Positions 30,771-37,470 of a stretch of 64,000 nt of DNA are shown one piece after another; positions within the stretch are counted from its first letter, which is position 1, and each line of letters opens with the position of its first letter. This DNA is from Halarcobacter sp. (GTDB lineage Bacteria > Campylobacterota > Campylobacteria > Campylobacterales > Arcobacteraceae), in contig JBFHGG010000003.1 of the NCBI GenBank assembly GCA_041583235.1, positions 3,823 to 67,822 of the forward strand. Direction: 5' to 3'. A program made the translations under genes and the position numbers. Under the pieces are notes generated by a model. It did no database searches. It was not told the origin of the DNA and was given only the letters and a program-made list of their open reading frames with translations.

Positions 30771-32784
30771 GAACGACAGCTGTTTCTTTGATTTTTTCAA
30801 TAATTTTATCTTCTTCTTTTTTCATTAATTCATCAGTATCTATATCAGGATTAGTATGATCTTTTCTATTCACAAAAATATCATGTCTACTTAAACTAAT
30901 TCCTTTCATATGTGATAAGGGGAAGGCAAAAGCAATTCCTTTTCCTGATGTAGTTATATGTAAAGAGTGAATTATAGATTTAATAACAGGATTTACCAAA
31001 CTTTGAGGAAGTAAAAATAATAACATAGCATCATTTGCTTCAAAAGATGTTCTATAATAATTATCAATTTTTCCAAGTCCAATTCCATCTGCTCTTAATA
31101 CCGTAACCCCAGAAGCTCCTGCTTTATTTGCAGCTTGAATTGCATCAATTTTTTTCTCTTTAGGAACTAGAATAACAACAGCTGAGAAATCCATTGGTAA
31201 AGAGTGTCTTCTGTCACTTCCATCGATATTTACTGTTGCTAAATCCATATTTTCTGCATCAATAAGTGCATCTCTTAAAATATTAGCTGCTTCAATTTCT
31301 GTATCTGATTTAATTCCTAGTTTTTCAGTTAAGATACCATAAAGCATTACTGTAATCATTGGAAAAAGAGAAGCAAAGGCAATAAGTCCAAAACCATCAA
31401 TTAAAGGACTTCTATCTGGAATATTTGTAGCTAATCCAATTCCTAAAGCTGCAACTAAAGGTACAGTTACAGTTGAAGTTGTAACACCTCCACTATCATA
31501 GGCAATAGGAATAATATATTTTGGAGCAATAAATGTTAAAATTATTACCAATAAATATCCTACAATAATATAATAATGAATATGTCCACCATCTACAATT
31601 CTAAAAGCCCCTAAAGCAATACCCATGGCAACACCAAATGCAACAAAAAGTCTTAAGGCAAAATCATTTATTTTACCATCTGATATCTCTTTAGCTTTTT
31701 TAGCAATTGCCATTAAAGCTGGTTCTGCCATTGTTGTAGAAAAACCAATTGCAAAAGCAAAAGCATAAATCATCATCACTGAATCTGATTTTGTAAGTTG
31801 ATAAGCCATTGTTTCACCAAGAGTGAAAAGCCCCATTTCAAGACCTAAAATGAAAGCATATAAACCAATAATTACAAGAGCAAATCCTAAAAGAACTGTT
31901 TTAATATTTTCAATTTTTTTCTTTAAAACTGCATATTGAAAAAATACAATAATAAATAAAATTGGTGCAACATCTTTTACAACAGAACTAATACCATTAA
32001 ATACTGAAGTAAATGAAATTTCTATTGTACTTGAAACAGAGGCTTGAACTACAACTTCTGCGACCTCTTTTGCATCAACTAAATTATATACAGCAATCCC
32101 ATATATTTGAACAAAAATCATTGGAGTTAAAGAAGCAAAGGCAATTAAACCAAAACCATCAACAACAGGATTTCTTCCTTTAATTGTAGAAGCTAAACCA
32201 ATACCAAGAGCAGCAACAAGGGGAACTGTAACTGTAGAAGTTGTAACTCCTCCTAAATCGTATGCTAATCCAATAATTTCTTGAGGTGCAAAAAAAGTAA
32301 CACTTACTACTAAAATATATCCAGCAATGATATAGTAGTGAATAGCATGACCTTTATAGATTCTATATACACCTAAGAATATAGCAAAACCAACAGAACC
32401 TGCAACAACAAGTCTTAATATTGTTGCGTCAATTCTTCCGCTTGATATTGAAGCCGCCTTATCAGCAATAACTGCAAGAGCTGGCTCTGCAATTGTTGTA
32501 CCAAAGCCAATTAAAAATCCAAAGAAAAGAACCCATAACATAGTTCCATGCTTTGCAAAATCTCGCGCCAATCCTTCTCCAACAGGGAAAATCCCAATCT
32601 CTAAACCTTGTAGAAAAATTGCAAGTCCAACACCTACAATACCTAATCCAATTGCAGTACTCAACCATCCTTCAGGAATAGCTTGAATTATTGCTAATTG
32701 AAAAAATAATATTACAATAATAATTGGTAGTAAATCTCTAAAAGATTCTTTTAGTAATTTCAAAAAGAAATTAAATTGTGTCAT
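30748..32784 (-). CDS. DUF1538-DUF1538-PII-like fusion membrane protein
   Basis: Two internal repeats (TIAEPAL / TMAEPAL, DxGGVTTSTVTVPLVAALG, DGFGLIAFASL) and a C-terminal PII-like domain (GASGVTVL.ADGIG, GKGIAF). Confidence 0.82.
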   Translation of the reverse strand: MTQFNFFLKLLKESFRDLLPIIIVILFFQLAIIQAIPEGWLSTAIGLGIVGVGLAIFLQGLEIGIFPVGEGLARDFAKHGTMLWVLFFGFLIGFGTTIAEPALAVIADKAASISSGRIDATILRLVVAGSVGFAIFLGVYRIYKGHAIHYYIIAGYILVVSVTFFAPQEIIGLAYDLGGVTTSTVTVPLVAALGIGLASTIKGRNPVVDGFGLIAFASLTPMIFVQIYGIAVYNLVDAKEVAEVVVQASVSSTIEISFTSVFNGISSVVKDVAPILFIIVFFQYAVLKKKIENIKTVLLGFALVIIGLYAFILGLEMGLFTLGETMAYQLTKSDSVMMIYAFAFAIGFSTTMAEPALMAIAKKAKEISDGKINDFALRLFVAFGVAMGIALGAFRIVDGGHIHYYIIVGYLLVIILTFIAPKYIIPIAYDSGGVTTSTVTVPLVAALGIGLATNIPDRSPLIDGFGLIAFASLFPMITVMLYGILTEKLGIKSDTEIEAANILRDALIDAENMDLATVNIDGSDRRHSLPMDFSAVVILVPKEKKIDAIQAANKAGASGVTVLRADGIGLGKIDNYYRTSFEANDAMLLFLLPQSLVNPVIKSIIHSLHITTSGKGIAFAFPLSHMKGISLSRHDIFVNRKDHTNPDIDTDELMKKEEDKIIEKIKETAVVHDSNINK

Positions 32785-32929
32785 ATATTACATCCCTTGT
32801 CATTTATTTAAATATATCTAATTTTTTTTGATATACAATTAAAACTAAGCTATATTAATGGTTAATTTTATTATTAATCTTATTTATGTATAAATTTATT
32901 AAATTATGTGAGTAGAAAATTGCAGTATT

Positions 32930-32957
32930 AAAAAAGAGTACTAAAGTACTCTTTTTT
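32930..32957 (-). terminator. Terminator after leuA
   Basis: aaaaaagagtac-taaa-gtactctttttt. Confidence 0.75.
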
Positions 32958-34535
32958 TTAAACTTGATGTTCTTGATTTTTTAATAACCTTTGTTTTTGA
33001 GAAAGGTAAGAGTTTAATGCACTTAAATATGCTTTTGCAGTTGCTAACATAGTATCAATACTTAAACCATGTCCAACAAAAGAAGGTGAATTATCATCAA
33101 ATGCAACTCTTGTTGTTACTTTTGCTAAGGCATCTTTACCTTCAGATACAGAAGTTACTTTATAATCTTTTAATTCCCCATTATAACCTGTTAATCTATC
33201 TATAGTTTTAAATATTGCATCCATAGTACCATCACCAATAGCAGCATCAGACATAACTTTATCTTCGAATTTAATTGAAACAGCAGCAGTTGGAACACCA
33301 TTAGAACAATCAGAAATTTGTAAACCAACTAATTCATATGTTTTATCTTGATTTAATGCTTCATCAGTAATTAACATTCTTACATCATCATCTGTTACAT
33401 CTTTTTTCTTATCTGCTAATACTTTAAATCTTTCAAATGCTGCATTTAACTCTTCATCTGTAACTTTATCAAAACCTAAATGTATTATTTTATCTCTAAA
33501 AGCAGCACGACCTGAATGCTTTCCTAAAATTAATGTAGATTCTTTAAATACACCAACATCTTCAGGTTTCATAATTTCATAAGTTTCTTGATGTTTTAAA
33601 ATACCATCTTGATGAATTCCACTTTCATGAGAGAATGCATTCTTACCAACAATTGCTTTATTTTGTTGTGGTTCAACACCTGTAATTGTTGCAACTAATC
33701 TAGAAGTAGCATATAATTCAGGAGTATTTATATTTGTATATAAGCTTCCAAAAGCATCTTTTCTTGTTTTAATAGCCATTACAGCCTCTTCTAATGCAGA
33801 ATTTCCAGCTCTTTCACCTAAGCCATTAATTGTAACTTCAATTTGTCTAGCTCCATTTAAAACAGATGCTAAAGTATTTGCTGTTGATAAACCTAAGTCA
33901 TTATGATTATGAACTGAAATAATTGCACGATTACCTGCAAATTCACTTAATTCTTTAACCATAGCACCTAATTCATTTGGTAATCTATATCCAACTGTAT
34001 CAGGTAAATTAATAGTTGAAGCACCAGCTCCTATAACTGCATCCATAACTTCTTTCATAAATGAAATATCAGATCTCCCTGCATCTTCTAATGAAAACTC
34101 AACATCATCAACGAATGTTCTTGCATATTCAACTGCATGAACTGCTCTTTTAATAACTTCTTCTTCACTCATTTTTAATTTGTATTTCATGTGAATTGGT
34201 GAAGTTGCGATAAATGTATGAATTCTATGTAGTGGAGCTTTTGCAACAGCTAAACCTGATTGTTTGATATCATTATCAATTGCTCTACTTAAAGAACAAA
34301 TACTTGAGTTTTTAACTTGTTCAGCAATTCTAGAAACAGCATCAAAATCCCCTGGACTTGCAGCTGCAAATCCAGCTTCAATAACATCAACTCCTAATTT
34401 TTCTAATTGTAAAGCTACTTTTATTTTTTCTTCTGTGTTCATTGAACAACCTGGGCTTTGCTCACCATCTCTTAATGTTGTATCAAATACTATAATTCTG
34501 TTTTTATCTATATTTTTTTCCATATTTTTCCCCAT
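32958..34535 (-). CDS. leuA: 2-isopropylmalate synthase
   Basis: [25 protein letters not shown] and HESGIHQDG motifs plus the C-terminal regulatory domain; the start may be 34523. Confidence 0.96.
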
Positions 34536-34642
34536 TGTATAAAGCTTAAAATTCGTGTATTATATCCTTTTTTAATATAAAAAAGAAAAAACTGTTTGCG
34601 TGATTATTATTTTTGTTTGACTTAATATATAATTATTAAGTA

Positions 34643-34720
34643 TTAGAGTGATTTTTGAAGTAGCAGAAGAGTGTTAACACTTTTTATAAAATGTTTATTA
34701 TAAAAATTAAATATTTTCAT
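34643..34720 (-). CDS. leuL: Leucine-rich leader peptide (25 aa, MKIFNFYNKHFIKSVNTLLLLQKSL)
   Basis: SD AGGAG, then ATG; CTT CTG CTA CTT run plus a CTC near the stop; lies directly upstream of leuA. Confidence 0.8.
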   Translation of the reverse strand: MKIFNFYNKHFIKSVNTLLLLQKSL

Positions 34721-34749
34721 TTTGTACTCTCCTAGATTTTGTATGTAAG

Positions 34750-34778
34750 ATTATAATGTGAAAAAAAGAATTTGTCAA
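34750..34778 (-). promoter_or_regulatory. Consensus sigma70 promoter for leader-leuA
   Basis: TTGACA (34778-34773), a 17-nt spacer and TATAAT (34755-34750) on the minus strand. Confidence 0.85.
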
Positions 34779-34793
34779 GAACTTTTTAAAATT

Positions 34794-35396
34794 CTATTCA
34801 TCTTCTTCTTTTTTTGCTAATAATGTTTGTCCTGAGGTGATTTTATCACCAATTTTAACAAGAGTAATAAACTCTTCATTTAAAGTTACTACAACTTGAC
34901 CTTGTAAAAAAATACCAATTTTTTCACCTTTTTCAAACTTTTTCTTTTTTGATATTTCTATACTTGTATTATATATTGAAGAGTATAACTCCATGCAAGA
35001 ATTAGAATATTCTAATTTTGCTTGTTCATTTAAAACTTTTGATTTAAAACTTTCAAAAAATAGATTTAATCCTCTTTTTATATTAATTTTACAATCTCCA
35101 TTTTCTAAACTTCTTAAAATATGAGAATTACATAAAGAGACATCAATATAAATAGTTTTTTTAAAATCTTTTATATCAATAGCACTTATAGTCCCTGAAA
35201 TTGGAGCTATTATTTCATTTTTCTTAAAGGATTTAAAATCCATATATTTATATCTATAAATATACATTAATGAAATCATTATCACAAAAGAGATAAAAGT
35301 TAAAAATCCACAATCAAGTAATATAAAAATTATAATCGCAATAAATGCAATTAAAACAGATTTTTGTCCCTCTTTTGCAATAATCGAATCAAACAT
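34794..35396 (-). CDS. Phosphatidylserine decarboxylase-related protein, probably inactive
   Basis: N-terminal TM, APISGTI..I and VKIGDKITSGQT; no FGS/LGST self-cleavage motif. Confidence 0.65.
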   Translation of the reverse strand: MFDSIIAKEGQKSVLIAFIAIIIFILLDCGFLTFISFVIMISLMYIYRYKYMDFKSFKKNEIIAPISGTISAIDIKDFKKTIYIDVSLCNSHILRSLENGDCKINIKRGLNLFFESFKSKVLNEQAKLEYSNSCMELYSSIYNTSIEISKKKKFEKGEKIGIFLQGQVVVTLNEEFITLVKIGDKITSGQTLLAKKEEDE

Positions 35397-35397
35397 T

Positions 35398-37470
35398 TTA
35401 TTTTTTATCCTCATTTTTATCTAAAGTTTCTTCTTTAGAATCTTCTTCTTTTATTTTAGTATCTTCATTAGCTTGAGTTTCTTCAGTTTTTTCATCTTTA
35501 GATTTATTATCTTCATCTGTTTTTACAGCTTCAGTATGTAAATCTTCATCTTCAAAAACTACACCTCCATGTGCTTTAATAATTTCTCTAACTCTTTCTC
35601 CTGAAATAACTTCAATTTCAAGTAATTCAGCAGTCATTTCTTCAATTGCATCATTATTGTCTCTTAATTCTTGTAAGACAATAGCATATCTATCATTTAG
35701 AAGTGTTTTCACATGTTCATCTAAATTTTTTGCCATTTCATCAGAAAAATCTTTTGTAGTTTGTCCACCTAAAAATTGGTTTTGTCTTTTCTCTAAAACC
35801 ATCAATCCAGCAACATCACTCATTCCATAAACAGAAGCCATAGATTTAATAATATCAGTAGCTCTTTCTAAGTCATTTCCTGCACCTGTTGAAATTTCTC
35901 CAATAAATACTTCTTCCGCTGCACGTCCTCCAAGTAATGTATCAACTTCAGCAATAAGTTCATGTTTTTGCATTAAGTATTTATTCTCTTCAGGAGTATT
36001 AAGTGTATAACCTAATGCTGCCATTCCTCTTGGTACTATCGAAACCTTGTTTACTTTCTTAGCACCTTTTGTAATTTCAGCAATTACAGCATGTCCTGAT
36101 TCATGATAAGCAACAATTTTTCTCTCTTTTGGAGAAATTCTTCTAGATTTCTTTTCAAGTCCTGCAATTTGTCTTTCAACTGCTTCTTTAAAATCATCAT
36201 ATGTAACTTCATCTTTCTTAGCACGACCTGCAAGAAGTGCAGCTTCATTAATAATATTTGCTAAATCTGCACCTGCAAGTCCTGCAGTCATTCGTGCAAC
36301 TTCAACTAAATCAACATCTTTTCCTAAAACTACATTTTTAATATGTACATTAAGAATCTCTTTTCTACCTTCAAAATCTGGTTTATCAACAAGTACTTGT
36401 CTGTCAAATCTACCTGGTCTAAGTAAAGCAGGGTCCAAAACTTCTGGTCTATTTGTTGCAGCTAAAACAATAACAGGTGCAGCTTCAGTTGAAAATCCAT
36501 CCATTTCAGCAAGTAACTGATTTAAAGTTTGTTCTCTTTCATCATTACCGCCCATTGGGCCACCACTAGCTCTTGATTTACCAATAGCATCTATTTCATC
36601 AATAAAAATAATTGCAGGGGCTACTTTTTTAGCTTGTTCAAAAAGATCTCTAACTCTTGATGCTCCAACTCCAACAAACATCTCAATAAATGCAGAACCA
36701 GATACTGATAAAAATTCAACGCTAGCTTCTCCAGCAACTGCTTTTGCAAGTAATGTTTTACCAGTACCTGGAGGTCCCACAAGTAAAACACCTTTTGGAA
36801 TTTGAGCTCCAAGTTTTACATATCTATCTGGGTCTTTTAAGAAATCAACAACTTCTTGTACCTCTTCTTTAGCTTCTTTATTTCCAGCCATATCATCAAA
36901 AGTTACATTTGGTTTTTCTGAATTAATCATTTTTTTAGAAGATCCAATACCAAGGATTCCTCCTGAACCCCCACCCATAGATTTAGACATTCTTTTTGCT
37001 AGGAACATCCAAATTGCAAAGAAAATGAAAATTGGTAGAATCCATCCAAAAAGAATATCTGCAATTAGGTTTTCTTCATTAATCCCACCATAATTAATTC
37101 CTTTTTCTTCTAAAGAAGGAATTAATGTAGAATCAGGAATAACTCTTCTAGCTGTATATGTTGTAATTTGACCATTAGATGGCTTACCAACTGCTTTAAT
37201 TTGAGTATTTCCAATACCAACGTATTCAATTGCACCACTTGAAATCATTTTCTTTAAATCAGAATATGCTACTGTTTGATTTTTTGTTTTTCCATAAGCT
37301 GCAATTGATGAATTTTGTCCTGCCATTCCTTGAGTATTTCCTTCTGGAAATATTGCTTTAAATACAAAAATTGTAACAATTGAAAATATTACAAATACTA
37401 ATAATGGATTATTATTAAAAAAATTGTTGTTATTATCTCCACCATTGTTATTGTTGTTTTTACCATTCAT
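35398..37470 (-). CDS. ftsH: ATP-dependent zinc metalloprotease FtsH
   Basis: [22 protein letters not shown] and HESGH (HExxH) motifs. Confidence 0.97.

Follow-up and report, generated by a model that had tools for sequence, protein, structure and literature searches.

The window analyzed here, a stretch of 64,000 nucleotides from a Halarcobacter sp. contig, carries on its minus strand the gene for 2-isopropylmalate synthase, leuA (NF002086, 745 bits, above the cut-off), and ahead of it a short leader ORF flanked by two predicted promoters. The genes upstream of the leader are psd-like, ftsH, and prmA. The gene directly upstream (34794-35414, minus strand) encodes 206 amino acids, matches phosphatidylserine decarboxylase families only weakly and below threshold (37.8 bits at best, where the cut-off is 183), and stops 16 nt from the -35 box of promoter P1. 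In the direction of transcription, the features of the locus are as follows:

34750-34778, minus strand: predicted promoter P1 (12/12), with TTGACA at 34778-34773, a 17-nt spacer, and TATAAT at 34755-34750
34726-34734, minus strand: leader Shine-Dalgarno (SD) region UAGGAGAGU, which is also the 5' arm of stem A
34643-34720, minus strand: LeuL-type leader ORF of 25 codons plus stop, encoding the peptide MKIFNFYNKHFIKSVNTLLLLQKSL
34664-34672, minus strand: anti-SD ACUCUUCUG (codons 17-19), the 3' arm of stem A, which pairs with 34734-34726
34658-34669, minus strand: four consecutive Leu codons, CTT CTG CTA CTT, proposed to be regulatory
34603-34672, minus strand: C-rich, G-poor tract that begins at codon 17 and runs through the spacer, by composition only a candidate rut-like Rho-loading region
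34620-34641, minus strand: hairpin B, ACUUAAUA/UAUUAAGU, 8 bp of which all but one are A-U, just past the leader stop
34565-34587, minus strand: hairpin C, U-run UUCUUUUUUA paired with A-run UAAAAAAGGA, minimum free energy (MFE) -4.5 kcal/mol
34559-34566, minus strand: predicted promoter P2, GATATAAT, a Campylobacterota-type extended -10 element (GnTATAAT) that precedes the first leuA ATG by 29 nt
32958-34535, minus strand: leuA

The leader ORF begins with an ATG at 34720 and closes with a TAA at 34645-34643. Its SD sequence, AGGAGAG at 34733-34727, ends 6 nt before the ATG, which gives proper ribosome-binding site (RBS) spacing, and an SD is present in all relatives compared. The peptide ends in LLLLQKSL, with every Leu codon of the CUN type, including the fifth, CTC at 34648-34646, which is the last sense codon. 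The genome has a G+C content of 27.3%, and its long ORFs encode leucine by TTA (60%), CTT (23%), CTA (9.7%), TTG (5%), CTC (1.0%), and CTG (0.7%); its tRNA-Leu genes carry the anticodons CAA, UAA, GAG, and UAG. The initial annotation had described a TTGACA-17-TATAAT promoter, an AGGAG motif, and a 25-codon ORF (34720-34643) using exclusively CUN codons in place of the favored TTA, and each of these elements was recovered in place on the minus strand, with the codon preference borne out by the genome-wide usage. It had also taken the leader to be unannotated. Indeed, Pfam and NCBIfam scans of the leader peptide gave zero matches, exact look-up of three leader variants in a collection of 15 billion proteins found them absent, and annotation pipelines still miss the LeuL leader. 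A genome-wide search for further Leu-run leaders placed every other candidate inside coding regions.

Relatives were collected by a LeuA protein search of 40 related genomes, a procedure that is blind to the leader. Upstream of leuA, the 25-codon leader was present in 24/24 same-genus genomes of this set, with the consensus MKIF[DN]F[YF]N[NK]HFIKSVN[TS]LLLLxKSL and a start 164-190 nt upstream of the leuA match (leader-leuA distances overall were 120-190 nt). Since these leaders were found through leuA alone, their recurrence argues for an ORF that does not depend on chance. Among species genomes, 58 were hit by a degenerate DNA pattern designed for FIKSVN[TS]L. In about 53 of the 58, labeled Arcobacter, Halarcobacter, Aliarcobacter, Malaciobacter, Poseidonibacter, and Marinarcus, the match lay in a 25-amino-acid ORF followed by leuA within 120-166 nt. 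Conservation of the Leu run ahead of leuA in relatives, which the initial annotation had proposed as a check, thus extends across both sets. Three matches, in MAGs assigned to Cyanobacteriota, Promethearchaeota, and Clostridia (L048, L055, and L077), fell inside other ORFs and were discarded as chance. Four contigs labeled Elusimicrobiaceae, Candidatus Paceibacteria, Sulfurovum, and "bacterium" (L075, L088, L085, and L037) carry an Arcobacter-type leader with leuA and look like mis-binned or mislabeled Arcobacteraceae.

Among 25 genomes of the LeuA-based genus set, variable sites of the leader fall at codon positions 1, 2, and 3 in numbers of 7, 6, and 15; F11, V15, and N16 vary synonymously only, as does I12 apart from one I-to-M change in 25. 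Such third-position-biased substitution is, at the level of sequence comparison, a coding signature. The 124 Leu codons of these leaders comprise 66 CTT, 31 CTC, 20 CTG, 6 CTA, and 1 TTG, with no TTA. The spacer after the leader stop is far more variable than the leader ORF and rich in indels; conservation of the leader therefore does not merely reflect the closeness of the genomes. Beyond the family, a short Leu-ending ORF precedes leuA in all five of the other families of the order that were compared, with the endings ..PKIEIKNLLLRF, ..PKIEIKNTLLLFRF, ..QNLLLPN, ..ANLLLLVLL, and ..SSILL. In the LeuL peptides of two of the other families (L026 and L027), the Leu run is preceded by a common motif, LPKIEIKN, which is also found in published peptides of C. 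concisus, C. curvus, Sulfurospirillum, and Nitratiruptor. In the same two sequences, the leuA SD region has its complement in the RNA just past the leader stop (UCUCCUAUCAUA and UCCUUUC, respectively for the two loci), and that lineage may use SD masking.

The implied novelty of the leader did not hold. For C. jejuni, potential leader peptides ahead of leu, trp, and met genes were described by Porcelli et al. (2013, BMC Genomics 14:616; PMC3847290), who introduced the name LeuL, noted the rare CUA, CUC, and CUG codons of the C. jejuni leu leader, placed LeuL upstream of leuA in most Epsilonproteobacteria, and proposed termination/antitermination without giving structures. Their Table S12 lists near-identical Arcobacter orthologues, namely MKIFDFYKSHFIKSVNSLLLLSFSL for A. 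butzleri, MKIFDFYKNHFIKSVNSLLLLSFSL for Arcobacter sp. L, and MKNINFFKNNFTKSSNSQLLLKNFL for A. nitrofigilis (PMC3847290). The window leader and that of A. butzleri are of equal length, identical at 19/25 residues by our own count, and share the core HFIKSVN[ST]LLLL. In 2025, Ribo-seq revealed strong translation-initiation peaks on C. jejuni LeuL, listed as CJsORF41 (PMC11955535). Our literature search found no other paper on LeuL in Epsilonproteobacteria/Campylobacterota, and neither of these two establishes a mechanism. Judged by its sequence, the window leader adds one member to a LeuL family already published and is not a new kind of element. As a sighting it adds little, given that LeuL was predicted in 2013, including in three Arcobacter species, and that the C. 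jejuni member is translated (PMC3847290, PMC11955535).

Both promoters predicted at this locus are conserved. The -10 box of P1 lies 35 nt from the leader ATG, within the canonical distance of 30-40 nt, and P1 is the sole 12/12 promoter in the 3 kb scanned; another 20 kb of the window, scanned separately, held none. P1 takes the form TTGACA-17-TATAAT or TATACT in 58/58 valid family sequences. A perfect -35 box accompanies only 6/357 gene-upstream TATAAT sites in this genome, against a chance expectation of about 0.35/357, a figure that is our own base-frequency estimate and not the output of a tool. Promoters of this genome are otherwise almost without a -35 signal, and a perfect TTGACA box spaced 16-18 from the -10 is rare (the 6/357 sites, P1 among them); G is enriched two bases before TATAAT, and positions -3 to -6 are T-rich.

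The second promoter, overlooked by the initial annotation, lies directly after hairpin C and has the form G[AGT]TATAAT; its distance to the leuA ATG is 29-34 nt in 54/54 unique sequences. TATAAT itself is kept in 52 of the 54, the variants being TACAAT and TATAAC. Across the genome, TATAAT on the sense strand is most frequent 30-39 nt before start codons (140 per bin versus approximately 27), GnTATAAT is enriched in the same peak (45 versus approximately 4), and published Arcobacter -10 boxes have a matching GnTAnAAT form. We read P2 as the own promoter of leuA, predicted at the canonical distance of this genome, and with P2 present leuA need not rely on read-through alone.

The leuA ATG at 34535 aligns with the start in relatives, and a second ATG at 34523 has a better SD (GGGGA). 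The true start may be this second ATG, because the first lacks a good SD whereas the second follows GGGGA. A 12-nt insertion, ATGGGGAAAAATATGG, is found at the leuA start in the window and in its nearest relative (L002). When the leader RNA of the window is folded at full length, the partner of the U-run (34579-34591) is GGGGAAAAA, which lies ahead of the second leuA ATG (34520-34535), a pairing specific to the window genome and the same relative. On long transcripts, according to this model, the U-run could mask the RBS of the second ATG unless the A-run keeps the U-run in hairpin C.

Folding of the whole 224-nt leader gave a z-score of -2.3. In stem A, a feature of the MFE structure and of the centroid alike, the SD region UAGGAGAGU of the leader is paired with ACUCUUCUG, a segment that spans the first two Leu codons. 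The stem A duplex has a mean energy of -10.6 kcal/mol over 51 unique family sequences, compared with a mean of -6.6 kcal/mol when the Leu segment is paired instead with 400 other RBS regions of the genome that contain an SD. Because CUN codons are inherently complementary to GGAG, the modeled pairing is consistent with a function and is not independent proof of one.

The two AT-rich hairpins that had been noted downstream of the leader were both found, at 34641-34620 and 34587-34565. Hairpin B starts at the leader stop codon or a few nucleotides beyond it. A fold of -2 kcal/mol or lower occurs in its window in 65% of 62 unique family sequences, versus 28% of GC-matched genome windows; it is weak, is missing in approximately one quarter of sequences, and its stems vary by genus (UAAUAUUUAA/UUAAAUAU, AAUUAUAAA/UUUAUAAUU, AAUAAUAAA/UUAUUAUU, AAUUUUU/AAAAAUU, and UCUAAUU/AAUUAGA). 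Hairpin C overlaps the -35/spacer region of P2 and is present in 54/54 unique sequences, as U5-C-U7 or similar against A7-G. Its variants were read sequence by sequence, since anchored alignment shifts the 5' arms where loop lengths differ. The C-G pair is replaced by A-U in L041 and L070, one extra A-U pair is present in L059, and C and G have both moved beside the loop in L046, L067, and L078. These coordinated changes in sequence argue for selection on the pairing, beyond the mere presence of T- and A-tracts. In L084 and L085, an unrelated hairpin, UUAAAUAA/UUAUUUAA, stands in place of hairpin C. Hairpins of a T-run with an A-run occur genome-wide in 31 intergenic versus 83 coding positions with no consistent context, and on these counts we dropped them as a general class of terminators or promoters.

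The absence of a classical terminator/antiterminator pair, which the initial annotation had also reported, was borne out by every search made. A consensus scan of 32500-35500 gave no terminator-like site, and folding of the segment from the leader stop to the U-run in 25 genomes gave no stable hairpin adjoining the U-run; real terminator hairpins elsewhere in the genome have 13-14 bp with G-C pairs. An Rfam cmscan of the region at E-values up to 10 returned only chance eukaryotic matches, with no Leu_leader or other leader family.

The RNA from codon 17 onward is distinguished by its base composition. Per 70 nt of the C-rich, G-poor tract, the family averages 13.6 for C, 2.0 for G, and 8.5 for YC dinucleotides, compared with 7.2, 8.9, and 3.2 in control windows taken from the sense strand upstream of 773 genes of the genome. 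The excess of C over G averages 11.6 in the family, above the 99th percentile of the controls (9.3), and the window, at 10, ranks within the top 1% of controls. The spacer holds one to three AAUCA[AC] motifs, and the genome encodes rho (660 bits). The tract is in part a by-product of the CUN codons, and its composition alone does not demonstrate Rho loading.

Based on these results, we consider it probable (approximately 0.8) that the window element is the Campylobacterota LeuL orthologue, and that it is translated and couples leucine supply to the adjacent leuA by ribosome stalling at rare CUN codons. If charged tRNA-Leu were scarce, the ribosome would stall on the four consecutive rare CUN Leu codons. 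Basal transcription of leuA would come from P2, and the leucine-regulated addition to it would presumably be read-through from the strong P1.

As to how stalling might act on this read-through, we favor Rho-dependent control, to which we assign somewhat less than an even chance and which is drawn from composition and anatomy only. With leucine plentiful, the ribosome would complete the leader and leave, and the RNA that starts with the Leu codons, rich in C and poor in G, would lie bare. Rho could then load on the bare tract and halt RNA polymerase around the U-run ahead of leuA, a downstream run that would be a natural zone of pausing and release. The freed Leu codons would pair with the leader SD in stem A, closing the leader start site. 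A ribosome stalled on the Leu codons would instead hide most of the tract, including most of its YC dinucleotides, because it is at the regulatory codons that the candidate tract for loading begins, and the polymerase would read on.

Rho-dependent attenuation of P1 transcripts is the reading that fits most features. Nonetheless, hairpins B and C have no clear role in it, which counts against it, as does the amino acid conservation of HFIKSVN beyond the Leu run, which would be superfluous for a pure codon sensor. The share of read-through could also be small if P2 is strong and constitutive. Taken as one scheme, the Arcobacteraceae LeuL would be an attenuator without a terminator hairpin, in which the CUN codons serve at once as the sensor, as the leader anti-SD, and as the core of a Rho tract hidden by the stalled ribosome, and in which read-through from P1 adds to P2, whose -35/spacer encodes the covarying U-run:A-run hairpin. 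We advance this combination tentatively, as a less probable claim than its Rho component.

An intrinsic but non-canonical form of attenuation is unlikely. Here, hairpin C with the following AUAUAAU would be a weak terminator of P1 transcripts, and a stalled ribosome would break stem A, freeing the purine-rich RBS to pair with the U-run and block hairpin C. The presence of hairpin C in all 54 sequences, with its compensatory changes, is in keeping with such a role, and with the Leu codons masked, hairpin C forms in the model with an average probability of 0.55 instead of 0.83, falling to approximately 0 in roughly a dozen sequences. However, hairpin C is far weaker than the 13-14-bp, G-C-containing terminators of the genome and has no U-tract after it, the RBS:U-run pairing is no better than that of ordinary RBS regions (median percentile approximately 0.3; window 0.49), and the stall mask leaves the hairpin C of the window itself unchanged (0.89 to 0.86). 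The RBS:U-run antiterminator was retained as no more than a weak rival: it forms in about half of the constrained folds, but it is absent in the sequence of the window, and its complementarity is ordinary.

Translational attenuation of the erm/cat type, in which a stalled ribosome would expose the leuA RBS on the long transcript, is improbable. The complementarity of post-stop sequence to the leuA SD in the two other families and the pairing of the U-run with GGGGAAAAA in the window would suit it. Against this, the modeled probability that the leuA SD is unpaired is 0.53, 0.54, and 0.56 in the free, stalled, and stop states of the 25 genus sequences. With accessibility unchanged under the stall masks, masking of the leuA SD was rejected as the main mechanism. 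The leuA RBS is moreover 110-130 nt away from the leader, and P2 would give a short mRNA without any upstream element. Thus, of the non-classical routes named in the initial annotation, the Rho-dependent one remains compatible with the data through the C-rich, G-poor tract and rho, whereas translational control is unsupported by folding.

Slightly less probable again is an independent mini-gene, whose transcript would end before leuA and whose peptide or RNA would act in trans or have no regulatory part, with leuA expressed from P2 only. The leader together with P1, and leuA together with P2, do each resemble a canonical unit, with a -10 box 30-40 nt before the ATG, and the peptide is conserved outside the Leu run, as the purely synonymous variation at F11, V15, and N16 (and nearly so at I12) indicates. 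Yet Leu-rich short ORFs are strictly linked to leuA across many families despite otherwise unrelated peptides, and TTA is avoided exclusively within the Leu run. Also against it, at the leuA locus of C. jejuni a text search of published lists of transcription start sites found an entry for LeuL only (Cj1719c_LeuL). A chance ORF in AT-rich intergenic DNA can be dismissed as effectively refuted already by the conservation data, for although this genome has 86 ORFs of at least 20 amino acids in 9 kb, length, frame, SD, promoter, and Leu run are kept in more than 70 genomes with third-position-biased substitutions.

To our knowledge, few cis-regulatory RNAs are known in this AT-rich phylum. Several parts of the Arcobacteraceae LeuL lend themselves to testing, namely the anti-SD formed by the regulatory codons, the C-rich, G-poor tract, the covarying AU hairpin, and the internal promoter at the canonical distance. 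Its value is that it could make Rho-dependent or otherwise non-classical amino acid attenuation testable in such a phylum.

Compared with the LeuL elements of other Epsilonproteobacteria, the window element has the same layout: a short ORF (20-35 amino acids) with an RBS directly before leuA on the same strand, a C-terminal cluster of Leu in rare CUN codons, and a sigma-70 promoter of its own (in the window, the predicted P1). It differs in coming from a species that was not among the 2013 set, and in having a second promoter and two conserved AU hairpins between leader and leuA, with no terminator found. Enterobacterial leuL (RF00512, PF08054), like trpL and hisL a classical attenuator, likewise has four rare Leu codons in a short leader before leuA, and its leader RBS is able to pair with a downstream segment. 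Unlike these attenuators, the window element has neither a G+C-rich terminator with a U-tract nor a clear, mutually exclusive 2:3/3:4 pairing, and its leader matches no Rfam or Pfam family and is not similar in sequence to enterobacterial leuL. In Actinobacteria, leader-peptide regulation of leuA, or a LEU element, has reportedly been predicted by comparative genomics, in an unrelated lineage and with an unrelated sequence.

The nearest parallel to the reading we favor, Rho-dependent control of P1 read-through, lies in another group of leaders. E. coli tnaC and Salmonella mgtL/mgtA and corL/corA are Rho-dependent leader-peptide attenuators, in which the position of the ribosome decides Rho loading and an unstructured C-rich, G-poor tract after the leader ORF takes the place of a terminator. 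The window leader resembles them in having a C-rich, G-poor tract, by composition only, and in the presence of a rho gene. Whereas tnaC, mgtL, and corL sense tryptophan, proline, or Mg2+, the window leader is proposed to sense the charging of tRNA-Leu, and its candidate rut tract, in contrast to theirs, overlaps the regulatory codons themselves.
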